A stretch of 34,515 nucleotides of DNA from a virus (Duplodnaviria; Caudoviricetes), in IMG/VR virus record IMGVR_UViG_3300005512_000153, positions 1-34,515 of that record; one strand, given 5' to 3'. How positions within the stretch are numbered: the stretch's first letter is position 1; each line of letters starts with the position of its first letter. The notes beneath the pieces were generated by a model. It was not told where the DNA came from, made no database searches, and saw nothing but the letters and a program-made list of their open reading frames with translations. Of this stretch, positions 1 through 32,933 are shown one piece after another. A program made the position numbers and the translations under genes.

Positions 1-1
1 T

Positions 2-406
2 GAGTTATGGTGGAATATTGAGAATGATAGACTTGTAAATACTGGATCAAAAGTAGCAAATCTTGGAGTAAGAGCCACAAGAAGCACAAAACCAAGGGCT
101 GTATTGCTTATGAAGAAGCTTATTGAGGATTATTCACTAGAGTTGGTAGATGAAAACACTATAGCTCAATTGACATCCTTTATAGAGAAGGGTAATAAGT
201 TTTATGGTGAAAATATGCCAGATGATTTGGTATCTGGTCTATACTGGGCTTGTTATATATTAGAAATGGGTATACTTGATGAGTCATTTGAATTCAGTGA
301 TGATAAAAAGATGAAAGAAGATGATGGATGGGGTATATTGACTGATGCTGATATGAATATAGAAGATGATTGGTCTTGGATGAATAATAATACATTTTCA
401 AATTAA
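2..406 (+). CDS. gp17: Terminase large subunit, C-terminal nuclease domain (5'-partial)
   Basis: The frame is open from base 2 (ELWWNIENDRLVNTGSKVANLGVRATRSTKPRAVLLMKKLIED...). LGVRATRSTK, D..TIAQLTSF and DDLV match the T4 gp17-like RNase H-fold end. Confidence 0.85.
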   Translation, partial: ELWWNIENDRLVNTGSKVANLGVRATRSTKPRAVLLMKKLIEDYSLELVDENTIAQLTSFIEKGNKFYGENMPDDLVSGLYWACYILEMGILDESFEFSDDKKMKEDDGWGILTDADMNIEDDWSWMNNNTFSN

Positions 407-407
407 A

Positions 408-415
408 TATAAATA
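408..415 (+). promoter_or_regulatory. T4-type late promoter TATAAATA
   Basis: Exact TATAAATA in the intergenic gap after the terminase. A gp55 late sigma factor is encoded in this window. Confidence 0.6.
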
Positions 416-421
416 GTAATA

Positions 422-507
422 TGGGAGGACAGCATCGACGGATGTTGGCTAGGTGCCTCAATCACTTAACCTTACTCCTAACTAATAAACCTATTGAGGG
501 GGTTAGT
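422..507 (+). ncRNA. Structured 5' leader (three-way junction plus pseudoknot) upstream of the HNH endonuclease, copy 1
   Basis: P1 422-427/475-480, P2 431-436/441-446, P3 447-455/463-471. Loop CCTCAAT (456-462) is complementary to ATTGAGG (493-499). A homologous copy lies at 3249-3332. Confidence 0.65.
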
Positions 508-510
508 ATT

Positions 511-1548
511 ATGAAATTATGTTGGGATAATATTGAGAATATAAGACTTAGTAAATATGGTAATTTTAGGGATATTGTAAAGAATGTTACATATTATTTG
601 AAGGTATGTGAAGAGTGTGGGGATGAGTTTTTATCATTAATTCAAAGTATTGGTAAATTTTGTAGTACATCATGTGGAAAAGATGGTAGTAATAATCCAA
701 TGTATGGTAAATATCATACAGAAGAGACAAAAAGAAAATTGAGTGAAAATAAAAAAAATAGTTATAAAGATCCAAATAGTATATACAATACTGATGGATA
801 TAGAAATAAATTGAAAGGTAAAAAAAGATCAAACAAGTTTAAGAAGAATCAATCTGAGATTATTAAAAAATTATGGAAAGATCCAAATAGCAAGTATAAC
901 AGCATAGAATATAGAGAATCGTTGTCCGAAAGATTGAAAATTCAATGGATGGATGAAGATTTCAAAAATGAAATATCACAAAAAATATCTTTATCAAGAT
1001 CAGGATATGCATCAAAAGGCTTACCACTATATGATACATACGCACCACAAATAGAATGGTGTGAAGAGGTTAGACGGAATAAGAATGATCCCAATGTGTT
1101 AGAAGTTAGATGCTTCAAGTGTGATAAATGGTTTATTCCAAGTTTGGTAAATGCACATAATAGATCCCAATATATAAAGGGTAATTATAATAATGAAAAT
1201 AGATTCTATTGTTCTAACTCATGTAAGAACTCATGTTCTATATTCAATAAATCACCAGAACAGATTGAAAGAGAGGATGCAATACGAGCAGGTAGACTAC
1301 AATGGTTAGAACTTCAACGTGAAGTTCAACCAGAATTAAGGCAGATGGTTCTTGAGCGTGATGAATATGAGTGTGTTAAATGTGGTAGTACTAATAAATT
1401 ACAATGTCACCATATACAACCCGTAAGTATTGAACCACTACTAAGTGCAGATATAGACAATTGTATTACATTATGTTCAGACTGTCATAAAGAAACACAT
1501 CAACAAGATGGATGTAGATATGGACAATTAAGAATAGAGGAGTGTTAA
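511..1548 (+). CDS. Free-standing HNH homing endonuclease with NUMOD3-like and Zn-ribbon motifs
   Basis: NNPMYGKYHTEETKRKLSE is NUMOD3-like. The C-terminus has RDEYECVKCG...CHHI...NCITLCSDCH (HNH). ATG 511 follows a GAGGGGG SD, so it is preferred to 421. Confidence 0.88.
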   Translation: MKLCWDNIENIRLSKYGNFRDIVKNVTYYLKVCEECGDEFLSLIQSIGKFCSTSCGKDGSNNPMYGKYHTEETKRKLSENKKNSYKDPNSIYNTDGYRNKLKGKKRSNKFKKNQSEIIKKLWKDPNSKYNSIEYRESLSERLKIQWMDEDFKNEISQKISLSRSGYASKGLPLYDTYAPQIEWCEEVRRNKNDPNVLEVRCFKCDKWFIPSLVNAHNRSQYIKGNYNNENRFYCSNSCKNSCSIFNKSPEQIEREDAIRAGRLQWLELQREVQPELRQMVLERDEYECVKCGSTNKLQCHHIQPVSIEPLLSADIDNCITLCSDCHKETHQQDGCRYGQLRIEEC

Positions 1549-1550
1549 TT

Positions 1551-2402
1551 TTGACAACTAAGACACAACTAGCAGAGAAGATAAAGCGTAGATTGGGATA
1601 CCCTATGGTAAAAATTGAATTGGATTATTCTCAATTGACAGATTCAATAGATTACGCAAGAGATAAATGGATTAAGTGGAGTGCAGGAAACGCGACGTCT
1701 GAAGTTTTCTTCACGACACCATTATCTGCTGGTCAATATCTATATGATATGCCAACTGGATGTGTAGAAGTATTGTCATATGATGCTATGGGTATAAGTA
1801 GTGGTATCAATACACTATTTACAGTAGAGAATTATCTATATTCTAATGGAATGTTTGAATCTTTACTAAATACAAGTGCGGCTGGTTATTCACTTGTATC
1901 ATATCATGCTGCAAGAGACTTTCTTGATACATTGAAAAGATATACACCCGATGCATATAACTTTAAATATCATAGATATACTAACCAGTTAGAGATACAA
2001 CCACCACCCCCTTCTGGTGGTAGTTTAACATATACACCTAAGTACTTGAATGCACAAGGGGAAGAGGTGGTAGGGCAGGAAATCACAATAGATTCACCAG
2101 GATTTATGTTAATAAGGGCATATATGGTAGAAGGTTCGACACTTGACCCAGATTATGCTAACGGTGATACAGATCCACATTTTCTTACATCATCTTGGAT
2201 ATTTGATTATGCTACAGCATATGCTACTAGAGTCTTGGGGCTTGTAAGAAGAAAGTTTGGTCAATTTAGTTCATTAGGTAATCAAGGTATAAGTATGGAT
2301 GGTGATTCACTCATAAGTGAGGCTAATGACCAGATGGAAAGATTAATGGAGGATTTGTATCTAAGGGAAGTTTATGAGGGTTACGGCATCGAGATAGGTT
2401 GA
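1551..2402 (+). CDS. gp13: Neck protein (T4 gp13-like)
   Basis: RRLGYPMVKIELD..QL.DSID at the N-terminus and RRKF...GISMDGDSL..EA at the C-terminus. The TTG start at 1551 follows GAGGAG (the ORF track starts at 1542). Confidence 0.85.
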   Translation: MTTKTQLAEKIKRRLGYPMVKIELDYSQLTDSIDYARDKWIKWSAGNATSEVFFTTPLSAGQYLYDMPTGCVEVLSYDAMGISSGINTLFTVENYLYSNGMFESLLNTSAAGYSLVSYHAARDFLDTLKRYTPDAYNFKYHRYTNQLEIQPPPPSGGSLTYTPKYLNAQGEEVVGQEITIDSPGFMLIRAYMVEGSTLDPDYANGDTDPHFLTSSWIFDYATAYATRVLGLVRRKFGQFSSLGNQGISMDGDSLISEANDQMERLMEDLYLREVYEGYGIEIG

Positions 2403-2432
2403 TGCAAAACTAATACAGTAAAGGAGAGTAAA

Positions 2433-2576
2433 ATGGATAAGTTACAAAAAGTTTATGAAGAAATGTTGAATGAAAACAAGAAGAAAGTGGAGAAGGAAAA
2501 CCCAAGTATTCTTGATAAGATGAATGAAAGAATCTCAGTCTTAGAAGAGGAAATTAAGAAACTGAAAGGTGAATAA
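2433..2576 (+). CDS. Small charged coiled-coil hypothetical protein (47 aa)
   Basis: AAGGAG SD, then MDKLQKVYEEMLNENKKKVEKENPSILDKMNERISVLEEEIKKLKGE*. It fills the gap between gp13 and gp14. Confidence 0.65.
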   Translation: MDKLQKVYEEMLNENKKKVEKENPSILDKMNERISVLEEEIKKLKGE

Positions 2577-2578
2577 TA

Positions 2579-3205
2579 ATGGCCCATAATCGTCTTGAGA
2601 AACCAAAATGGGAATTATATAATATTAGTGATTCTAATATTGAACATGATCTGTTTGATAGTGCAATAGTAGAATATAATGACATTTCTGGTGCAAAGAT
2701 AAATTACTATATACGAAATGAAGATATAGAGATGGATCAACTGTATGGTGAAAGTACCAATACAGCATATCTTGATGCCAGAGAAAGCAAGATGGTATAT
2801 GATGTTACAGAAGAAACTACTATGACTGACCCATTTGGTATAGTTTCCATTGACCAGATACAATATGCATGGATGCCTAAATCTACATTCATAAGGGACA
2901 TCAGTGCAACATATCAACCAAAGCCTGGTGATGTTATACAGACCGTATGGAATCAGAAATCATATGAAATGGTTGATGTGCCAGCTGAAGGCAGTATATT
3001 TCAATTGAAGAAGATGGTATGGGAGTTCTTATTGAAACCATATAGATTCAGTGATCAATCATCTTCTGCTGAAGACATATCATATGATTTAGATAATACA
3101 TTATCAGAACCTTTGACTGCATTTGGTGAGAATCAGTGGATAGATGATGCTTCAGATGATATTGACGCATATTCAGATGTGGATTCATCAATTTATGGGT
3201 TCTGA
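2579..3205 (+). CDS. gp14: Neck/head-completion protein (T4 gp14-like)
   Basis: G.KINYY.R, D.LYGE, FGI and PKPGDVI motifs. Located after gp13. Confidence 0.8.
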   Translation: MAHNRLEKPKWELYNISDSNIEHDLFDSAIVEYNDISGAKINYYIRNEDIEMDQLYGESTNTAYLDARESKMVYDVTEETTMTDPFGIVSIDQIQYAWMPKSTFIRDISATYQPKPGDVIQTVWNQKSYEMVDVPAEGSIFQLKKMVWEFLLKPYRFSDQSSSAEDISYDLDNTLSEPLTAFGENQWIDDASDDIDAYSDVDSSIYGF

Positions 3206-3248
3206 GTGTAGATAAGGATTACATCAATATCTATAGATTTTGAGATAT

Positions 3249-3332
3249 GGAGGACAGAGGGTAGCTCCCTTGGTTGAATGCCTTCAACATTCAACCTTAC
3301 TCCTATAACAACAAACCTTTGAAGGGGGTAAG
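3249..3332 (+). ncRNA. Structured 5' leader (three-way junction plus pseudoknot) upstream of the GIY-YIG endonuclease, copy 2
   Basis: P1 3249-3252/3300-3303, P2 AGGG/CCCT 3258-3270, P3 a perfect 9 bp stem 3272-3280/3288-3296. Loop CCTTCAA (3281-3287) is complementary to TTGAAGG (3319-3325). Confidence 0.65.
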
Positions 3333-3334
3333 TA

Positions 3335-4063
3335 ATGATTATATATAAGGCTACAAACAAAATAAACGGTAAATGTTATATAGGACAAACTACAGGAAAA
3401 TTGAAAAATAGAAGAAAACAACATTTATATAAATCAAAAAACATGTCTAATTTTTATTTTCATAATGCACTAAGAACGTACGGTAAAGATAGTTTTGAAT
3501 GGGAAGTGTTATGTGAATGTGATACAAAGGATGAATTGAACGAGATGGAGTTTCACTATATAAAACAGTATGATACATATGAGAACGGATACAATATGAC
3601 ATTTGGTGGTGATGGTATAATTAGAATAAATATATCAGAAGACCACAAACAAAAGATATCAGATGCATTAAGAGGTGAAAATCATCCTATGTATGGTAAA
3701 CATTTATCAGAAGACCACAAACAAAAGATATCGAATGCATTAAAAGGTAAAAAGGTGAGTATATCAACTAGAAAGAAAATGAGTGAATCATCAATAGGTA
3801 AAAAGATGTCAGAAGAAGCCAAATTAAAATTAAGCCTAGCTGGAAAGGGTCGTGTTTCTCATATGAAAGGCAAAACTCACACAAAGGAAACAAGAAAAAT
3901 ATTATCCGAAAAATCAAAAGGCAATGAAAGCCACGCCAAAATTTGGTGTTTTCATCATAAAGGCAAAAACATTGAAATTAAAAATTTACAAAAGTTTTGT
4001 ATAGATAATAATTATAAATATTCTAAGATATATTATAGATTAAAGAATGGGATTTCAATATAA
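3335..4063 (+). CDS. Free-standing GIY-YIG homing endonuclease (Seg/I-TevI-like) with NUMOD3 repeats
   Basis: IIYKATNKINGKCYIGQT...R...H, E..YI and NGYN.T.GG. Repeated HLSEDHKQKIS / HTKETRKILS DNA-binding motifs. Confidence 0.92.
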   Translation: MIIYKATNKINGKCYIGQTTGKLKNRRKQHLYKSKNMSNFYFHNALRTYGKDSFEWEVLCECDTKDELNEMEFHYIKQYDTYENGYNMTFGGDGIIRINISEDHKQKISDALRGENHPMYGKHLSEDHKQKISNALKGKKVSISTRKKMSESSIGKKMSEEAKLKLSLAGKGRVSHMKGKTHTKETRKILSEKSKGNESHAKIWCFHHKGKNIEIKNLQKFCIDNNYKYSKIYYRLKNGISI

Positions 4064-5028
4064 TGGCAAAAACCTACTATTACTACTCATCAATAAGAAA
4101 AACTATCATACAGTTTTTGGATATTTTCAAGAACGTAAAAATCGCTAGACATGACTCTAATGGTGATGTTTCTGGATATATAAAGGTTCCCATAAAATTT
4201 GGTCTGAAAGAAAAATGTTGGTATTGGTTAAATGAGCGTAAAGATGATGAAATGTTGCCGATTATGTCCGTAGTAATGGATGGTGTTGAATATGACTCTC
4301 AAAGACAGACCAGTAAAGTAAGAAATGTTATAAAATCAAAAACAATCTCTACCGCAGAATTAAGCAGATTTCTTAATCCAGTTCCATATAATCTTAATTT
4401 TACTGTCACATTATGGTCATTGCATATGGTAGATGTTGATCAGATACTTGAACAAATTTTACCATACTTTTTACCAAACATCTTTATAAGAATGAATATA
4501 CCAGAGTTAGACTCTACATTAGATTTGAAGGTGATGTTTAATGGATGTTCACCAGAAGTAACAGATCAGATGTCAGATGAAGAGATAAGAATATTGAAAT
4601 GGAATCTAACATTTACGGTTCATAGTTATCTATTTCAACCATTACAAACCACCAGCCTTATTAGGAAGGTTATTGATAAGTTTTATGTTGATAAGGCATC
4701 TTGGGGTCATAGATTTACAGAATCAGAATATACATCTGGTGCAGATGGTCATGAATTAGAGTCTATATTCACTAAAGGTATATATCCATATTATGATGAA
4801 GATGATTGGGCTGCTAGTACATATTATGAAATTGGTGATTATGTTAAACCGACGACCACCAATGGATATTTGTATCAAGTTCAAAGCATAGAATTGCCTG
4901 GAAAATCAGGCACTACCGAACCAACATGGCCTACAAACAAAGGGGTTCCTGTTATTGATAATGATATAATATGGGAAAGGTATCAAAAAGATGAATCAAA
5001 AAGGTTAGTAGAATTTGAGGTATTTTAA
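4063..5028 (+). CDS. gp15: Tail sheath stabiliser/terminator (T4 gp15-like) with a C-terminal CBM-like extension
   Basis: YYY.SIRK.I..F, KVPI.FG.KEK, LP.MS, YDSQR, PVPYNL.F and QILEQILPYF.P motifs. Confidence 0.9.
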   Translation: MAKTYYYYSSIRKTIIQFLDIFKNVKIARHDSNGDVSGYIKVPIKFGLKEKCWYWLNERKDDEMLPIMSVVMDGVEYDSQRQTSKVRNVIKSKTISTAELSRFLNPVPYNLNFTVTLWSLHMVDVDQILEQILPYFLPNIFIRMNIPELDSTLDLKVMFNGCSPEVTDQMSDEEIRILKWNLTFTVHSYLFQPLQTTSLIRKVIDKFYVDKASWGHRFTESEYTSGADGHELESIFTKGIYPYYDEDDWAASTYYEIGDYVKPTTTNGYLYQVQSIELPGKSGTTEPTWPTNKGVPVIDNDIIWERYQKDESKRLVEFEVF

Positions 5029-7651: not shown

Positions 7652-8203
7652 ATGAGCATTGATATAGATGAAATGATAAGTGAAACTGGTGGTGATAGAG
7701 CCAGGTCATATCTGTTTGAATGGATATTACCAGCTATACCAGAATTAAATATACCACTTATAGCAAATACAAAATATTATGTGAAAGCATCTAGTTTTCC
7801 AGAATCAGCTGTAGAAGAACTTACAACTTATTGGCAAGGGCAACAATATAAAGCTGGTGGATCAAGAAGATTTGGTGATTGGACAGTTACAGTCCAGAGT
7901 GATTCAGAGGGATATCTGAGATTTTTTTGTGATGTATGGATGCATGAAATACATACTGTTATACCTAATTTTACAAGATATGGAAAAGCATCTGGGCTTA
8001 CAAGTTTTGGGTATTTTAGAGATCAAGCATTTGTTCTGAATGATAATGAAGGAGACACTTCACTTGGGCTATATTTACATAACTCTTGGCCTAAAAATAT
8101 AGGAGCCATGAACCTTGATTATGATTCAAATGATATTGCTACATTTGATATTACATTTGCTTATGAATATCATGTAATAGTACCAACTTTTGGTTTGTTT
8201 TAA
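7652..8203 (+). CDS. Tail tube family protein (gp19-like), paralogue 1
   Basis: ARSYLF, VKASSFP, G.R.F.DWTVT, WPKNIG...LDYDS and FDITFAYEY motifs. Confidence 0.85.
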   Translation: MSIDIDEMISETGGDRARSYLFEWILPAIPELNIPLIANTKYYVKASSFPESAVEELTTYWQGQQYKAGGSRRFGDWTVTVQSDSEGYLRFFCDVWMHEIHTVIPNFTRYGKASGLTSFGYFRDQAFVLNDNEGDTSLGLYLHNSWPKNIGAMNLDYDSNDIATFDITFAYEYHVIVPTFGLF

Positions 8204-8214
8204 AAGGGATTATT

Positions 8215-8817
8215 ATGATTGGAATAGAAGAACTAAAGGGAAAGATAGAGGGTCTTATAAAACAGTATGCACCATTTATCACAAGTAGTTTTGATTCCTT
8301 TAGTGTTGATAAGTTTAGTACATATTTTGAAGGTGGGGCTAGAGCATATCTTTTCAAATGGAAGCCTGGAAGCCCAACAAGTGGTATAGTAAATATATCA
8401 GATGATTATATATATCTAGTAAAAGCATCATCCATACCACAATCGTCAGTTGAGGAAATAGTTACAGAATATCAACATCTCAATTTCAAAATGGGTGGTA
8501 AAAGGGTTTTTGATGATTGGACATTATCGTTTCTTGTAGATATAAAATCAAAAATAAGAGGTGATTTTGAGAAGTGGATGAATGGTATAACACAAGTGGG
8601 TAAGGATAATATTTTTATACAACATTATCTAAGTGAGTATACATCGACACAAGACTTTTATATGTTAGATGGTGATGGATTGGATATACTTCATGTAACA
8701 CTTTTTGATGCATGGCCTAAAACTATAGGGCCAGTAACAATGGATTATAGTTCCCAAGATTTTGCACAATTTGATGTAACATTTTCATATCTTTATCACG
8801 AAATAAAGAATGTTTAA
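8215..8817 (+). CDS. Tail tube family protein (gp19-like), paralogue 2
   Basis: GGARAYLF, GGKRVFDDWT, FEKWMN, DAWPK.IG and FDVTFSY motifs. Confidence 0.85.
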   Translation: MIGIEELKGKIEGLIKQYAPFITSSFDSFSVDKFSTYFEGGARAYLFKWKPGSPTSGIVNISDDYIYLVKASSIPQSSVEEIVTEYQHLNFKMGGKRVFDDWTLSFLVDIKSKIRGDFEKWMNGITQVGKDNIFIQHYLSEYTSTQDFYMLDGDGLDILHVTLFDAWPKTIGPVTMDYSSQDFAQFDVTFSYLYHEIKNV

Positions 8818-8835
8818 TAGATAGGAGGAGTAATA

Positions 8836-9393
8836 ATGGCAACAGAAGGATTTGATATTAATAAATTTAAAGCTAACTTTGATGGTGGGGCTAGAGCATA
8901 TTTGTTCAAATGGACCCCAACATTTCCTGGTGGTATTGAATTTAACAAGGGCAGTGCCGCTTCATACTTAGTAAAGTCATCAACATTTCCTGGTGATGAA
9001 GTAGAGGAAATAATTGTTAACTGGCAAGGTGTTGATTATAAGATGGCTGGAAAAAGAACCTTTCCAGATTGGACTCTATCATTCAATGTAGATAGAAAAT
9101 CCACAATTAGAAAGGATTTTGGTAATTGGATTGATGCAATTCATACAGTCAATGGTACAGAATCACATAAATATGGTACTCCTGGTAGTCCAGAAAGTAA
9201 TGATGATGATTTAGGTAGTTATTTCTCTCAACAGACATTATACATGTTGGACTATAATGGTGATCCTGTATCAACATTAACATTGCATGGTTCATGGCCC
9301 AAATCAATTGGTGAGATTAGTCTTGACTATTCATCAATGGAAGTAGCAACATTTGATGTTACGTTTACATATCAATACCATACTATAGAGTAA
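8836..9393 (+). CDS. gp19: Tail tube protein (gp19-like), paralogue 3; possibly the major tube subunit
   Basis: FDINKFKANFDGGARAYLF, KMAGKRTFPDWT, WPKSIGEI.LDY and FDVTFTYQY motifs. It has the strongest SD (AGGAGGAG) of the four. Confidence 0.85.
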   Translation: MATEGFDINKFKANFDGGARAYLFKWTPTFPGGIEFNKGSAASYLVKSSTFPGDEVEEIIVNWQGVDYKMAGKRTFPDWTLSFNVDRKSTIRKDFGNWIDAIHTVNGTESHKYGTPGSPESNDDDLGSYFSQQTLYMLDYNGDPVSTLTLHGSWPKSIGEISLDYSSMEVATFDVTFTYQYHTIE

Positions 9394-9401
9394 TAAGTAT
9401 T

Positions 9402-9893
9402 ATGGCTTTCGATTTAAACAGTTTTTCCGCTGTATTTGATGGGGGTGCTAGATCATACTTGTTTGAGTATACCCCATCATTCCCAAATACAACGTATAAT
9501 GCCACATATTTTGTGAAATCGACTTCTTATCCAGATTCTACAGTAGAAGAGATACAACTTGCTTGGAAAGGATTGAAGTATAAAATCGGTGGTACTAGAA
9601 CTTATAATGATTGGACTGTATCGTTTCATATGGATAAAAATTATAATATTAGAGAATATTATGATGATTGGATGAAAGATATAGCTGGCCAGGATAAATA
9701 TGGTAAACCAGAAGATTATGTAATGAGTCAGACACTATACGCATTAGGTTATGATGGTACAAAGAAATCAACCATAAAGCTATTTGATGCTTGGCCCAAA
9801 TCAGTTGGTGAAATAAGTTTTGATAACTCAGCGATAGAAGTAGCAACATTTGATGTTACGTTTGCATATCAATATTATACTATAACTAAATAA
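9402..9893 (+). CDS. Tail tube family protein (gp19-like), paralogue 4
   Basis: GGARSYLF, GGTRTYNDWT, DAWPKSVGEI and FDVTFAYQY motifs. Confidence 0.85.
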   Translation: MAFDLNSFSAVFDGGARSYLFEYTPSFPNTTYNATYFVKSTSYPDSTVEEIQLAWKGLKYKIGGTRTYNDWTVSFHMDKNYNIREYYDDWMKDIAGQDKYGKPEDYVMSQTLYALGYDGTKKSTIKLFDAWPKSVGEISFDNSAIEVATFDVTFAYQYYTITK

Positions 9894-27247: not shown

Positions 27248-28471
27248 ATGTCAAAAGAAGAAAAAATGGGTGATTTTGAAAAGAAGATACTTGAAAATAA
27301 GGTATTGAATAGGTGTAAGTCTATAGAGATTGTTTCTTCAGAAAAATGCCAAAATGCTTGTAAGTATTGTTATAGAGTAAAGAAACATAGTAAATCACCA
27401 GTATATTCTTTAAAAGGACACCATGTAAAGACTTTAGTTGATGCTCTGCTGAATCAAATAGAACAGGACACAAGTTTTACCAAAGTAAGAGACTTTGAAC
27501 TATTTGGTGGTGATAGTCTTATAGATTATGCTGATGCTCTTGATATATTAAGGACTATTAATAGAGAGTATAAACCCCAAAGAATCACTATTCCTACCAA
27601 TGCTCGTATGTTACAAGAACTTACCATAAATGATATTAGAAGACTGGTGGATATGGAAACGCCAGTCGGTTTTAGTTTATCAGTTGATGGGATAAGTGAT
27701 GGTAATAGAAGATTATCCAAAATTGGTAAAATGTTAGCTTATAATGAAGAAGTTAATTACCCAAAACTATTAAAAATTGCAAAAGAGTTTGGATGTGGTT
27801 TCCATCCAATGTTATCATTTACAGATTTCACGAATTGGTTACCCACCATTAAACATTTTTTTGAAAATATGGGTGTAATTCCATATCTACTGGAAGTTAG
27901 ACATTCATTATCTCATGGACAATCTTTAGGTGCAGTAAAAGAACTTGTAAAGGTGAGGAAATATCTTGAAAGCAAGAACCTTCCTAAAGAATCCTTGAAA
28001 AATGCTAATACAACTAGTGGAAGTATAACACCTAGAGGATTGGGATGTTCTGCTTTGACAACATTATGTATTATGCCTAATGGTGATATACCATTTTGTC
28101 ATAGATTGATTGATGAACCTTGGTTAATAGGTAATGTTTTTCATGGTATTGATATATCTAAAGCTGTACAATATACAAGTACAATGGATCATAGGAACTT
28201 TCCTGATTGTATAATCTGTCCTATAAGAAGGTTTTGTAATGGTTTATGTGTTGGTGCTTGTTATGAATATTGGGGTGATCCTTGGATTCCTATTACTACT
28301 ATATGTGATTATATGAGATTGAAATATTATATTTTTGGTGAAGTTTTTGAGGATTGGAAAAACATGTTGTATAATGCAGGTGGTAGAATAAAGAGAGATA
28401 TTTTATTACATCATGTATCAGAAACCTTTGGGGGTGATAATATTAATAAGATTTTAGAAGAGGTATCTTAA
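27248..28471 (+). CDS. Radical SAM/SPASM-domain enzyme 1 (peptide/protein maturase-like)
   Basis: CQNACKYC (CxxxCxxC), FGGD, PTN and LSVDG. SPASM cysteines: GCSA...I.PNGD..FCH...IGN...CIICPIRRFCNGLC...C. Confidence 0.92.
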   Translation: MSKEEKMGDFEKKILENKVLNRCKSIEIVSSEKCQNACKYCYRVKKHSKSPVYSLKGHHVKTLVDALLNQIEQDTSFTKVRDFELFGGDSLIDYADALDILRTINREYKPQRITIPTNARMLQELTINDIRRLVDMETPVGFSLSVDGISDGNRRLSKIGKMLAYNEEVNYPKLLKIAKEFGCGFHPMLSFTDFTNWLPTIKHFFENMGVIPYLLEVRHSLSHGQSLGAVKELVKVRKYLESKNLPKESLKNANTTSGSITPRGLGCSALTTLCIMPNGDIPFCHRLIDEPWLIGNVFHGIDISKAVQYTSTMDHRNFPDCIICPIRRFCNGLCVGACYEYWGDPWIPITTICDYMRLKYYIFGEVFEDWKNMLYNAGGRIKRDILLHHVSETFGGDNINKILEEVS

Positions 28472-28472
28472 A

Positions 28473-29492
28473 ATGAATATACTCTTAATAAATCAAAATA
28501 AAGGTGCTGGGGTTGAATTTGAGGGTAATCTATTTCTTGAGATACTTAAAAAGATTGATGGTATTACAAGTGTAGAGACATCAAGAACACAAGATACTAA
28601 CTATCTGAAAAAGAATTTGGATTTTAGTAAATATGACCTTATATTACTCAATGATATAAGTAATATAGAGGATAGATATGTTGATCTACTGCCAGATGAT
28701 AAACCAATCATAAACATAAATTTTGGTGGTGGTGATGCTCATGGTAAATATCCCGTAGATTTGGTACTTGATATTAATCATCCATACACTATGTATAGAT
28801 CTGTTGAGGTTAGGAATGTTTTTCCATTATCATTCATATCAGGTAATATATGGAAAAACATAAAACCTTGGAATGAAAGATCAGATGACCTATTATATGT
28901 TAGCAGATTAGCAAAAACAAAAATAGAGAAAGTTTTCTTAGAACTGTTGAGAAAGAATAAAAAAACTGTAGACTTCTATGGTCCAATTATGGACAATGAT
29001 TATTATGAGGAGTATAAAGATGTTATTAATTATAAAGGATTTATAGATCATAAAGAACTATTGAATGTCTACAACAGTTACAAGAAGATATATTTATTTT
29101 CTACAACCGAATGTCTATCTATGACATTAAGGGAAGCTATATTATGTGGAACTGTACCTATTATACTAGATATTAACGGATATTCAAAGGTTGTATCTGA
29201 TTATGTTATTAAGTTTAGGATAAATGATGAAAATATATTTGATGTTGATAATGATATAAATAAAAAGAAACAAAGAATTAAGAATGATATTATTTATCTA
29301 AATAACTTATTTTCATTCGATAAACTAATACTGGACTTCATTACAGCATTAAGAAGTCTATTATTAAAGGATTTTAGGTTTAATAAAAATGCTAATGTGG
29401 TGTGTAGAGTAATAAATGACTTGGATGATCAAAAAATAACAGGCCATTTATATAAATCTGATACTATTGAATGGGATAAAGTAAACCTGTAA
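28473..29492 (+). CDS. Glycosyltransferase, GT-B fold (GT4-like)
   Basis: LLYVSRL...K, DFYG, YKGFIDH.EL...Y and the Ex7E motif ECLSMTLREAILCG. Confidence 0.8.
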   Translation: MNILLINQNKGAGVEFEGNLFLEILKKIDGITSVETSRTQDTNYLKKNLDFSKYDLILLNDISNIEDRYVDLLPDDKPIININFGGGDAHGKYPVDLVLDINHPYTMYRSVEVRNVFPLSFISGNIWKNIKPWNERSDDLLYVSRLAKTKIEKVFLELLRKNKKTVDFYGPIMDNDYYEEYKDVINYKGFIDHKELLNVYNSYKKIYLFSTTECLSMTLREAILCGTVPIILDINGYSKVVSDYVIKFRINDENIFDVDNDINKKKQRIKNDIIYLNNLFSFDKLILDFITALRSLLLKDFRFNKNANVVCRVINDLDDQKITGHLYKSDTIEWDKVNL

Positions 29493-29505
29493 GGAGGGTT
29501 GTGTA

Positions 29506-31074
29506 ATGTTAAAATATGGATTAGAAGATTTGGGATATTTCAATAAAGGGCCTGGAAGTGTTAAAATGATAGAAATGGATATAGGCCCATGGCATATTAT
29601 AGATGTCCCTATAGATATCCCAGAAGAGAAGGTAAAGAAACAGATCTTATCGTTTATCAATGAAGTTATTGCAATAGAAATACCGACATCACTACAATGT
29701 AACCTAAGATGTAAATATTGTTATATTAGTGATCCAAGAATGAAGAATAAGATTGTTGATCCACAATCAGTTACGGATATTCTTATGAAAGTTAAAGATA
29801 TGTTTCCAAAAATGAAGCCTGATAAGAATAGAAAAGATAAGGTATGTTTTTCACCTTGGGGTGCTGAACCAATGATGAATGTTGATACTCTTAATGCCAT
29901 GTATGAGTTTGGTCATGAATATTATGGTAAAGATGGTTATTCTATTCATACATCTACAAATGGTACTATATGGTCTAAAAAGATAGAACAGTTGCTTATC
30001 AATCTTTTTAAGGATAACTCTTTTCAAGATCTTCAAATTTCATTAGATGGACCACCAGAAGTTCAAGATAAATATAGACCATATACAGATGGTCATGGTT
30101 CATTTAAAGATATTGAAAAATTCACTTTAAATCTTTTCAAGTTTTTTGATTCTGTTGGTATTAAGGATAAGAAACATCACTTCTGTTCAACTATTCATAT
30201 GGATGAGAACTTTGAACAATCATGGTTAGGTGCTGCTGAGTTTTTCTCGACGCCTGGTAAGTGGTGGACATCATTACCCAATTTACCAATGAGAATAGCA
30301 GATCATAATATGAAAAATGAGGATGAGATTAGAAGGTTTATTGATGTACAAAAGAAGGTTATGGAATTATCCAAGAAAAGATATAATGAAGGTATCTTTA
30401 TGGTTGATTTTTATACCAGTAAACTATTTGGTAATATTCAATGTAAATCAAGAAATGCTTTTCCATTCTGTTCTGCAATGAATACTCAAATTGGTGTTGA
30501 TGTTGATGGTAGCATGTATCCATGTCATGGGGCAATAACCTCACCAAGACAAAAACCTTTTTTATGGTTTGGTAACTTATTTGAAGGTATTTTATCATAC
30601 CAAAAGGTGATTAAAAATATTTCTTATCAGTTTGGTAGCATTTGGAGTAGAGCAAAATGCACAAGTTGCCCATTGCATCATTATACAACGGGTAATGTCT
30701 GTTGGGATTGTGCTCCACATAATCTTGAACTTACAGGTGAACCATCTACAGACGGGATTATGAAATGTATAGCATTTTCTGAAAGTTTACCATATTGGAC
30801 TGAGATTGCAAAAATGGTATATAATAATCCTATATTAAAAGAAATCCCTGATAAATATAAATATAGTAAAGAAGAGTATTCTAAACTAAAAAAACTTAAT
30901 ATTATGCCAGAAAACATGCATTATGATAGAGACTATGATGGGATTTTAGATAGAGCAGTTAGAAAAGTATGTTGTCTTGATAATAAAGAGGATTATGGTT
31001 ATACACAATATGCTGATGCTTGGTGGAAATTTGATGATTTTTTTAATCTTGTAGAAAAGGAGAAATGTAAATGA
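29506..31074 (+). CDS. Radical SAM/SPASM-domain enzyme 2 (peptide/protein maturase-like)
   Basis: CNLRCKYC, WGAEP, TSTNGT and ISLDGP...D.YR....G.GSF. SPASM: CSA.......DGSMYPCH...FGNL...CTSC...C..C...C. Confidence 0.93.
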   Translation: MLKYGLEDLGYFNKGPGSVKMIEMDIGPWHIIDVPIDIPEEKVKKQILSFINEVIAIEIPTSLQCNLRCKYCYISDPRMKNKIVDPQSVTDILMKVKDMFPKMKPDKNRKDKVCFSPWGAEPMMNVDTLNAMYEFGHEYYGKDGYSIHTSTNGTIWSKKIEQLLINLFKDNSFQDLQISLDGPPEVQDKYRPYTDGHGSFKDIEKFTLNLFKFFDSVGIKDKKHHFCSTIHMDENFEQSWLGAAEFFSTPGKWWTSLPNLPMRIADHNMKNEDEIRRFIDVQKKVMELSKKRYNEGIFMVDFYTSKLFGNIQCKSRNAFPFCSAMNTQIGVDVDGSMYPCHGAITSPRQKPFLWFGNLFEGILSYQKVIKNISYQFGSIWSRAKCTSCPLHHYTTGNVCWDCAPHNLELTGEPSTDGIMKCIAFSESLPYWTEIAKMVYNNPILKEIPDKYKYSKEEYSKLKKLNIMPENMHYDRDYDGILDRAVRKVCCLDNKEDYGYTQYADAWWKFDDFFNLVEKEKCK

Positions 31075-31745
31075 GTGATTTGGATAATAGAATTAATTTC
31101 ATATGGGGTGGTGATGTATTAGATGGTGATAAAATAGAACTTACTGATATTACTGAAATACGATCTAATATAGATCTGATAGTTGCCGCTGATATTACTC
31201 ATGATTCTACATTCTATGAAACCCATTATACAGATTTAAAGACAGATTTGAACAATCCATATGATTCTACAAAGGAGTCTGGCAAACAAACTGGATATGA
31301 AAGTAATAGATATGCTATACATTTCACAGGTCATGATTCTACAAAATATGTAACACATGAAAATGGTGATGAGACTGACTTTAGAACTGGGCATTTTAGT
31401 ATACATGATAGTGCACGATATGACAGTGAAGATACTAATGATGATACTGTCGATGAGGCTGCTGATTATACTACACATCAATCAGTAAACAACATAACAC
31501 ATTTTGATAATGCTAATACTGCTGATGATAGTTCTAATGAAGGATATTATAAAGCAGTTAAAGATAGTTCTTATTGTTATGCTGTACAATCTGGTAGGTA
31601 TGATGATCATAATACATCGGATAGGAGTAATCAAAATGTTGGTAGAAATTTGCTTGATTATAAAGGTGCATTAATTTCACATCAGCAGTATGATCAAGTA
31701 AGCTATCTTGATGCCCACAATCCAGGTAATAATATTATAGCATAA
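31071..31745 (+). CDS. His-periodic tetrad-repeat protein, type B2 (candidate rSAM substrate)
   Basis: AAGGAG SD; overlaps the rSAM2 stop. The N-terminus matches 25898, and all 12 His fall in one 4-residue register over ~180 aa. Confidence 0.8.
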   Translation: MSDLDNRINFIWGGDVLDGDKIELTDITEIRSNIDLIVAADITHDSTFYETHYTDLKTDLNNPYDSTKESGKQTGYESNRYAIHFTGHDSTKYVTHENGDETDFRTGHFSIHDSARYDSEDTNDDTVDEAADYTTHQSVNNITHFDNANTADDSSNEGYYKAVKDSSYCYAVQSGRYDDHNTSDRSNQNVGRNLLDYKGALISHQQYDQVSYLDAHNPGNNIIA

Positions 31746-31761
31746 TAGGAGAATTTTTGAT

Positions 31762-32532
31762 ATGGCGTATAGTTGGATACCAATAATAGCAGGTCAGAAA
31801 ATTAGTGTTCCAGAATATACAGAACTACAAAATAATCTTGATGATTTGTTAACGAATTTTTTAGAGCTTACGGATTATGATTGGGGATATACTGCAGTAC
31901 AAAATGAACCAATTCAGGGTGAGTTAGTAAGAGAAATAAGAACTGCTGTTGATTATGCAGATGATATGAATTATTGTAGAACACATAATTCATCAGAAAA
32001 GACTACTTATAATAATGCTTTAAAGACAGATCATGATGCTGGTCTATGTCCATTAGAAAAATCTTCTTTAAATACTGGACATTTGAATATACATTATATA
32101 ACAGACTATGGAATACATGACACATTGCATTATGAAACAGATGATACAGACCATTTGAATGCTGAGTATTCTAGTGTATTGGGTAGTCACAACTCAATAA
32201 ACATACCCGGTCATAATAGCAGTCACCATACATCAAAATATTATTCCAAGGAAGTAACACACAATGCCTCAGAACGTAGTAGTGTAAATAATGAACGTAA
32301 TCAATCCGCTAATACAAGTGATTATAGTACACATTTAACAGCTAATGATGATGCTGATTATGCTGGTAATAAATCTACTCAATATACTGGACATGAAACC
32401 TCTGAGTATAGTGGATTGCGTACTGGTCATCTGACTGCTGATTATACAAATGAATACACTTATGATAAGAGTTCATATGATGGTACAGAAAAAGGCGGAG
32501 AAAATACCTCTGTAAATGCGGTAAACCAATAA
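31762..32532 (+). CDS. His-periodic tetrad-repeat protein, type A2 (candidate rSAM substrate)
   Basis: AGGAG SD. The N-terminus matches 25110 (NYCRTHN), and 14 of 15 His fall in one 4-residue register. Confidence 0.8.
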   Translation: MAYSWIPIIAGQKISVPEYTELQNNLDDLLTNFLELTDYDWGYTAVQNEPIQGELVREIRTAVDYADDMNYCRTHNSSEKTTYNNALKTDHDAGLCPLEKSSLNTGHLNIHYITDYGIHDTLHYETDDTDHLNAEYSSVLGSHNSINIPGHNSSHHTSKYYSKEVTHNASERSSVNNERNQSANTSDYSTHLTANDDADYAGNKSTQYTGHETSEYSGLRTGHLTADYTNEYTYDKSSYDGTEKGGENTSVNAVNQ

Positions 32533-32546
32533 AGGGAGAATAAAAT

Positions 32547-32933
32547 TTGTCAAATTATTACATAACTAATAAAGAATTATCAGTAGAACTTGTGAATTAT
32601 AGAGAAGAGGGTGTTATATCAGAAGAGTTAGGTGAAATGATTATATCTATTGCTACAAACTATTCCAATAAGGGTAGTTTCTCTTCATACTCATGGAAAC
32701 GAGATATGATATCAGAAGCAGTATTTACATGTGTCAAATATATACACAACATTGATCCAGAGAAAAATCCATTTTCTTATATAACAACAGTCTGTCATAA
32801 TGCATTTGTAAACTATATAAGGAAACAGAAGAAGCATAGTAAGATTAAAGATTCTTGTTATAATAATATTGATAAATTGACAGATAAAGAAAATTATATG
32901 GAAAAGTCTATAAATTACGAGGACTTAAAGTAG
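32547..32933 (+). CDS. gp55: Late transcription sigma factor (T4 gp55-like)
   Basis: Y..NKEL, LGEMI..IA, F..YSW..DMISEA...C.KY..N.DPEK.NPFSY.T....NAF...I.K.KK. TTG start after GGGAG. Confidence 0.9.
   Translation: MSNYYITNKELSVELVNYREEGVISEELGEMIISIATNYSNKGSFSSYSWKRDMISEAVFTCVKYIHNIDPEKNPFSYITTVCHNAFVNYIRKQKKHSKIKDSCYNNIDKLTDKENYMEKSINYEDLK

Follow-up and report, generated by a model that had tools for sequence, protein, structure and literature searches.

Homing endonuclease genes of T-even phages (I-TevI/II/III, segB and mobE of Aeh1) carry static structures that sequester the ribosome-binding site, and delayed translation is a known need of these enzymes (PMC2988022). The hairpins are simple, specific to one gene and relieved by a late promoter whose transcript omits the 5' arm (PMC2988022). 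The restraint of free-standing and intron-borne nucleases in phages is known almost solely from these cases. Here, an RNA leader is described that precedes an HNH and a GIY-YIG endonuclease gene in a 34.5-kb T4-like phage contig (IMG/VR record IMGVR_UViG_3300005512_000153, positions 1 to 34,515; hereafter the window). Like the T-even hairpins, it is predicted to place a structure over the Shine-Dalgarno sequence (SD) of phage homing endonuclease genes and likely serves the same purpose (PMC2988022). Unlike them, it is a single family with a three-way junction and a loop-loop kiss of 6–7 bp that stands before at least five nuclease families. The leader is a real, widespread and uncatalogued RNA family.

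Other described systems share single traits with it. In the cobalamin class II riboswitch, a loop of the junction domain kisses the loop of a 3' hairpin that holds the SD. This contact is under ligand control, and the receptor is a four-way junction with a B12 box. The leader has the same kind of kiss between a junction loop and an SD-bearing 3' hairpin loop, but its junction is three-way, it has no B12 box and no Rfam match, and its genes are unrelated. The C4 antisense RNA of phages P1 and P7 is processed by RNase P and pairs through two loops with duplicated a and b sites. Like C4 and the antisense RNAs of plasmid copy control, the leader is a cloverleaf-like RNA that presents pairing loops; an antisense variant described below would act in this manner, and some copies head replication proteins. 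In contrast to these RNAs, it has no match to C4 of Rfam, and most leaders would target the SD of their own message and bear a loop complementary to itself. Loops of this type are those of retroviral dimer linkage: GUGCAC is the palindrome of the HIV-1 dimerization initiation site (DIS), and the GACG loops of Moloney viruses (SL-C/SL-D) form kissing homodimers of 2 bp (PMC7357161, PMC5874298). Models for HIV-1 also link the dimer state to translation (PMC7357161, PMC5874298). The retroviral loops, however, function in the packaging of the genomes of eukaryotic RNA viruses; the resemblance implies no homology, and the dimer of the leader is a prediction.

The leader may be an unnamed candidate among the viral RNAs of Fremin et al. 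2023, where DNAVirus_8080, 8377, 187 and 4653 lie upstream of HNH and GIY-YIG or DUF1376 genes; the comparison was made by the gene-context table only, which gives no mechanism (PMC10690425). The portions of the literature searched hold no account of the leader family or of a dimer-sensing phage leader. Literal motif searches of papers returned primer and microRNA noise only, among the matches listed.

An earlier note on the window had claimed that both nuclease genes share a leader whose stems differ in sequence and keep their pairing. Pattern, fold and covariation among homologues confirm this. The pattern GGAGGACAG-N(25–55)-CCTTACTCC has exactly two matches in the window (424–478 and 3249–3303), two matches were obtained in 0 of 100 shuffles, and a covariance model detects these two copies only. 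The folding energy by itself is ordinary (z-scores of −1.8 and −1.1). The case for structure rests on covariation across homologues.

The core pattern yielded 55 viral loci and a stricter pattern 46 metagenome loci. Among these, 38 distinct true copies were aligned, the remainder being duplicates or chance matches. Scans with words from helix P2 (73 and 122 loci) widened the set to 97 parsed copies. A covariance model derived from T4-like copies alone gave 88 matches in 97 sources, diverged copies included, and a rebuilt model located up to nine copies per phage genome in 40 records picked for holding a copy. Altogether, 146 distinct copies were analysed. In addition, two scans blind to P2 contributed 17 rows that passed the structure filter (11 from 109 distinct matches and 6 from 110), some of them already known; two of the 17, L679 and L704, are doubtful copies. 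A short BLAST match revealed a copy with wholly different stems in the cultured Enterocloster phage CB457P1 (OP172753), where it lies inside a group I intron and before a GIY-YIG gene. The Enterocloster CB457/CB473 phages alone were matched by BLAST of cultured phages; a hit in Variovorax VBv52 falls in a coding region and was discarded as chance, as was the single match of a pattern scan of GTDB. Plasmid BLAST gave no match and a relaxed viral scan no additional P1 variants.

The fold consists, in this order, of P1, GACA, P2 (closed by a G·U pair), U, P3 (4–9 bp, with a loop mostly of 6–7 nt), UHA (UUA, UAA or UCA), the second strand of P1, a linker and a hairpin, P4. In an unfitted MAFFT alignment of 38 copies, 93.3% of the cells are paired and double changes are present at 11 of 17 pairs. 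When 88 sequences are aligned by fitting to the model, pairing extends to 93.8% of the cells and double changes to 17 of 17 pairs. In the interior of P3, G·U outnumbers A·C (29 versus 4), and hence the sense strand is the RNA. Both alignments, together with the covariation of loop and SD, bear out the proposal of a real covarying RNA with pairing kept across homologues. At the junction, GACAG is found in 140 of 146 copies, and the exceptions found by the model are GACAA (3), GACAU (2) and GAAAG (1); the invariance of GACAG and of UU follows in part from the search patterns themselves.

A switch between two conformations, in which CUUACUCC pairs with the SD region, had also been suggested. This idea does not hold for the family, since P1 varies freely outside the T4-like clade and the pairing is rare. 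It comprises 8 bp in copy 2 and an unbroken run of 5 bp in copy 1, and runs of at least 6 bp occur in 7 of 40 copies of the GGAG type and in 7 of 57 others. The alternative pairing would likewise cover the SD. A role as a general terminator was rejected because a run of four U follows P1 in 29 of 97 copies only.

The loop of P3 (L3) had been reported to covary with a downstream segment that overlaps the SD. This is borne out: 60 of 70 distinct central L3 heptamers, with the loop set from P3 alone, form a Watson-Crick run of at least 6 with their own tail, compared with 3.5% of swapped pairs. The proposed pseudoknot stands in refined form. Its 3' partner strand is the loop of the small hairpin P4, hence the contact is a loop-loop kiss. 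A P4 stem of at least 4 bp is present in 76% of the copies versus 34% with the arms swapped, and the hairpin is weak (median −1.1 kcal/mol). The 3' end of the partner strand usually lies 7–12 nt before the start codon, and the best predicted anti-SD match overlaps this strand in 75 of 80 copies. Based on this geometry over the SD and on the T-even precedent, the leader very probably represses translation of its gene (PMC2988022).

The genes behind the leader belong to many families. Among 35 open reading frames (ORFs) behind copies of the T4-like type, with some matches below the cut-off of Pfam, there are 15 HNH, 5 GIY-YIG, 5 NUMOD3 only, 4 PD-(D/E)XK-like (CapR, DUF7487), 1 His-Me, 1 RecA and 4 without family. 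The 39 ORFs scanned behind diverged copies, many of which are cut short where the flanking sequence ends, include 9 LAGLIDADG, 4 GIY-YIG, 2 HNH_3, 3 CapR/DUF7487, 2 TnpB, 3 DUF1376, 1 HTH_36, 5 other and 10 without assignment; three additional TnpB genes stand behind leader copies. The family thus serves free-standing as well as group I intron-borne nucleases of the HNH, GIY-YIG, LAGLIDADG, PD-(D/E)XK-like and TnpB types. In each of two sets of 20 loci scanned, group I introns lie upstream of the leader at 3 loci.

Leader heads of TnpB (IS605 OrfB-type) genes are located at L316, L294, L339, L373, L484, L487 and L488. Some of them follow a group I intron (IStron-like), and in L339 a RAGATH-18 element lies just downstream (1011–1071). 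GC-rich phage copies are found before DUF1376/HTH_36 proteins, which we take to be replication initiators (L292, L312, L338, L617, L356), several of them right after good sigma-70 −10 boxes. Copy-number control is a possible role of these leaders.

An empty allele is available for copy 2. Locus L510, from a near-identical phage, is 99.97% identical to the window over positions 1–3245, has 17 nt instead of 3246–4071 and resumes at 4072, so leader 2 begins at the cassette edge. As L510 lacks leader 2 together with the GIY-YIG gene, the leader, judged from these two alleles, travels with the cassette. The claim that it precedes endonucleases of unrelated families is upheld and extended. Its reading as a two-conformation switch is not supported, and nothing positive speaks for a processing element or a ribozyme. 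The cassette also gives gp15 a new start and removes the old SD (4063–4071, TAATG overlap), so translation of gp15 may be coupled to the stop codon of the nuclease. Another GIY-YIG gene lies upstream of the terminase gene in L510 (141–478), and its DNA is 76% identical to the start of the GIY-YIG gene of the window. The same leader with 99 nt upstream is shared by L061 (1795–1923) and L091. In L091 a GIY-YIG-like gene precedes recA; L061 retains a short remnant only, and here the leader outlasted or preceded the nuclease.

In 152 upstream regions, strong −10 or late-promoter boxes end 10–17 nt before GACA 44 times over these 8 positions, and the background further upstream is 0.8 such boxes per position. 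Judged by the position of these boxes, about one quarter to one third of the copies would yield transcripts whose 5' end is P1.

Rfam gave 0 matches in the window, and neither copy was matched at E-values up to 10. In scans of 20, 20 and 16 diverged loci, no significant match to the element was obtained; one FsrA match (E-value 0.74) was far below its cut-off. The riboswitches, small ribozymes, C4, RAGATH and IS605-orfB families of Rfam 15 did not match at gathering score or significant E-value. With the suggested check for C4-like RNAs and small ribozymes thereby run, the family is absent from Rfam 15. A small self-cleaving ribozyme or a processing element that frees the nuclease mRNA would agree with the three-way junction, the loop-loop contact and the conserved junction nucleotides. 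Yet no ribozyme family matches either copy over the same range of E-values, the kiss follows the SD of each gene, P1 often begins at the predicted transcript start with little left to cut off, and the element is also found inside group I introns; cleavage is thus very improbable. The nearly invariant junction and the riboswitch-like architecture could instead point to a switch in which the kiss is under the control of a metabolite, an ion or a protein of host or phage bound by GACA/U/UHA. This is distinctly unlikely: the conserved core comprises about 8 nt only, it persists in antisense copies without the L3/SD kiss, no riboswitch of Rfam matches, and the palindromes of the P2 loop are left unexplained.

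These palindromes were overlooked in the earlier note, which also mentions neither the TnpB and replication genes nor the antisense variant. The loop of P2 (L2) was surveyed in 140 non-antisense copies, equal to 52 P2 types. A palindrome of at least 4 nt is present in 42 of the 52 types (shuffle mean 17.8, maximum 29 in 5000). Its central tetramers are of eight kinds: AGCU (21 types), GAUC (7), GGCC (5), UGCA (3) and, more rarely, GUAC (2), AAUU (2), CAUG (1) and UCGA (1). GACG tetraloops are found in six of the other ten types, copy 1 of the window among them, giving 48 of 52 types that are palindromic or GACG. For comparison, 6 of 70 L3 loops contain palindromes. The AGCU class was seeded by two search patterns and was therefore also dropped for a recount. 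Without it, 27 of 31 P2 types are self-pairing versus about 20% of 2,845 hairpins taken from the same loci as controls, the types not being independent. In a tree built without P2, which is poorly resolved, near-sister copies carry different palindromes and at least six origins of GAUC, five of GGCC and four of GACG are forced. The notion that palindromes within a genome are orthogonal as a rule was rejected, as several copies share AGCU in G005 and G033.

Adjacent complementary bases cannot pair inside one loop, so the conserved self-complementarity of L2 points to a second molecule, and L2 probably pairs between molecules. Cofolding predicts a dimer gain of −5.2 and −8.9 kcal/mol, kissing being beyond its model. 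In L053, L2 has the sequence GUGCAC. Two accounts dispense with such a dimer. At the DNA level, the palindromes could be methylase or protein sites beside the promoter; their central tetramers correspond to typical methylase sites of 4 bp, and a −10 box often lies next to the element. Several different palindromes in one genome (G002, G005, G033) and the bias of G·U over A·C, which marks one strand, make this barely credible, and GACG is not a palindrome as DNA. Alternatively, the L3/SD kiss may just lower initiation as a constitutive damper, with the palindromes a by-product of template switching or module shuffling, or of use for RNA stability only. All covariation evidence for the kiss agrees with a damper, as do the static structures over the ribosome-binding site of T-even nuclease genes (PMC2988022) and the tolerance of non-palindromic L2 loops. 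The damper is nevertheless rather unlikely, given eight kinds of palindrome plus GACG far above the control hairpins, the same non-palindromic nature of GACG in DNA, and the use of L2 as pairing loop in the antisense variant.

Six copies are antisense-oriented, five in G006 (L497–L501 / L502–L506) and one in G002 (L492 / L507). They lack the L3/SD kiss, are flanked by opposed late-promoter boxes and run antiparallel ahead of an SD and ATG. In all six, L2 is longer and pairs over 8–9 bp with the SD of the opposite strand. The four opposite-strand ORFs scanned are all GIY-YIG. Additionally, L767 (299–410) has a pyrimidine-rich L2 complementary to the SD of its own gene, while its L3 kisses a separate upstream hairpin. 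In L589 (699–790), a pyrimidine-rich L2 is complementary to the SD region of its own gene, which is presumably DnaB-like. L2 thus seems to be offered by the scaffold as a pairing loop, whose partner is L2 itself in most copies and an SD in some. A leader core in L493 (1301–1382, G002), for which no downstream ORF and no kissing partner were found nearby, is read as an orphan or trans-acting copy.

We tentatively propose a translational brake through the L3/SD kiss, which L2 pairing between transcripts would tighten, so that the leader would sense transcript concentration. The P1-GACA-P2-U-P3-UHA fold and the complementarity of L3 to the P4 loop over the SD are conserved by covariation, and the leader, which belongs to the mobile cassette, is often found directly downstream of a −10 or late-promoter box. 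The weak P4 alone would admit ribosomes and the kiss of 6–7 bp would block them. L2 often changes sequence and mostly stays self-complementary, as would be expected if its partner is a second molecule. In the last and least certain step, two L3 loops of a dimer would be within reach of each SD hairpin and the output would saturate. Saturation would cap the dose of nuclease or replication protein whatever host promoter precedes the cassette. Given L2 pairing, the dimer is the likelier candidate for the more tightly closed state. In broader terms, the leader would be a self-counting mRNA element, in which homodimerisation by a fast-changing palindromic tag opens or closes the ribosome-binding site, with a scaffold taken up by four superfamilies of homing endonucleases, by TnpB and by replication proteins of phages, and flipped to an antisense RNA. 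The chance of this combined reading is put just short of even.

The reverse sign of the dimer effect has to be weighed. The monomer would then be OFF by the intramolecular kiss, and L2-L2 pairing would distort the junction and free the SD, with nuclease made only late, when many genome copies serve as repair templates. The L2 statistics fit this timer equally, and a crude reach estimate would allow an intramolecular kiss in 64 of 68 copies; the reach falls short in 4 of 68 when a straight rod is assumed and in 20 of 68 if P1 points away, with a negative correlation that is partly an artefact. T-even endonucleases need delayed translation (PMC2988022), and in this leader an upstream late promoter cannot relieve the structure: no TATAAATA box for a T-even-style internal late promoter lies inside either copy, and the one at 408–415 is upstream of P1. 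The predicted dimer, however, swaps strands of P2 (or P1) only and leaves P3 and L3 intact, which offers no base-pair release route. Furthermore, the other targets of L2, where present, are SDs and point to repression. A timer opened by dimerisation is thus unlikely.

Several observations weigh against the proposed dimer-tightened brake. The scans blind to P2 gave palindromes in 8 of 15 types only; among the other seven are two loops that resemble an anti-SD and two that differ from UAGCU by one letter, and L767 was scored as non-palindromic in this count despite a TATA at the stem edge flagged by the script. The L2 loops UUGCU (7 copies) and UCAUU (4 copies) have a core of at most 2 bp. L2 of the antisense copies also pairs over 7–9 bp with the SDs of some other copies when G·U is allowed, which indicates partial specificity. 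In L061 the leader is retained before RecA although no nuclease is present, and the kiss there misses the SD. Nor is the leader obligatory for the HNH family: relatives of the HNH gene of the window carry it at 2 of 23 loci, or at about 2 of 9 when only full-length matches are counted. Moreover, the sequences do not fix the direction of the dimer effect.

The leader would represent a new form of translational control of endonucleases, and a categorically new one if dimer sensing is true. One portable RNA family for HNH, GIY-YIG, LAGLIDADG, PD-(D/E)XK-like and TnpB genes in unrelated phages offers a test system that is ready for use. If L2 dimerises, the ligand of this riboregulator would be another copy of itself; in the portions of the literature searched, no bacterial or phage precedent for such self-sensing was found. 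It would then also lend itself to dose-compensated expression as a compact part, the natural loop variants providing orthogonal channels.

Table 1. Coordinates of the leader copies and associated features in the window.
Feature	Position	Strand	Details
T4-type late promoter box TATAAATA, resident in neck operon	408..415	+	sequence, shared by relatives
Leader copy 1, three-way junction and P4 SD hairpin	422..504	+	pattern, fold, covariance model
Copy 1 P1	422-427/475-480	+	
Copy 1 GACA	428-431	+	
Copy 1 P2	432-436/441-445	+	GACG loop
Copy 1 L2, GACG tetraloop	437..440	+	self-kissing type known in gammaretroviruses
Copy 1 P3	447-455/463-471	+	one C·A mismatch, one G·U
Copy 1 L3	456..462	+	complementary to 493-499; family covariation
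Copy 1 UUA	472-474	+	
Copy 1 P4 hairpin	488..504 (stem 488-492/500-504, loop 493-499)	+	SD in loop and 3' strand
Copy 1 start codon ATG	511	+	
Free-standing HNH endonuclease with NUMOD3, 345 aa	511..1548	+	Pfam PF01844, PF07460
Mobile cassette: leader 2, GIY-YIG gene and new gp15 start	3246..4071	+	replaces 17 nt of empty allele
Leader copy 2, three-way junction and P4 SD hairpin	3246..3329	+	pattern, fold, covariance model
Copy 2 P1	3249-3252/3300-3303	+	
Copy 2 P2	3257-3261/3267-3271	+	UAGCU loop
Copy 2 L2, UAGCU with palindromic AGCU	3262..3266	+	
Copy 2 P3	3272-3280/3288-3296	+	
Copy 2 L3	3281..3287	+	complementary to 3319-3325; family covariation
Copy 2 P4 hairpin with SD	3315..3329 (stem 3315-3318/3326-3329, loop 3319-3325)	+	
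Copy 2 start codon ATG	3335	+	
Free-standing GIY-YIG endonuclease with NUMOD3 repeats, 242 aa	3335..4063	+	Pfam PF01541, PF07460

Pfam assigns tail sheath stabiliser, sheath, tube and baseplate genes in the window. The ORFs at 2–406, 1551–2402 and 2579–3205 match no Pfam family and probably encode terminase, gp13 and gp14, as judged from the T4 gene order. The two nuclease genes are located in between, with one leader before each. A frame of 375 aa starting at ATG 421, in frame with the HNH gene, was rejected because it is not conserved and the corresponding frame of copy 2 contains a stop. The TATAAATA box, called from what we take to be the late-promoter consensus, would start transcripts at about P1 of leader 1. 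Since relatives without the nuclease keep the same box between the flanking genes, the cassette of copy 1 landed behind a resident late promoter. No enrichment of sigma-70 promoters or terminators was observed at 300–4200, and no tRNA or tmRNA is present in the window. Four gp19-like tail tube paralogues lie in tandem at 7652–9893 (weak matches to PF06841). Two radical SAM proteins, a glycosyltransferase and a short sigma-70 region 2 protein follow the tail genes at 27248–32933, possibly as a modification module.

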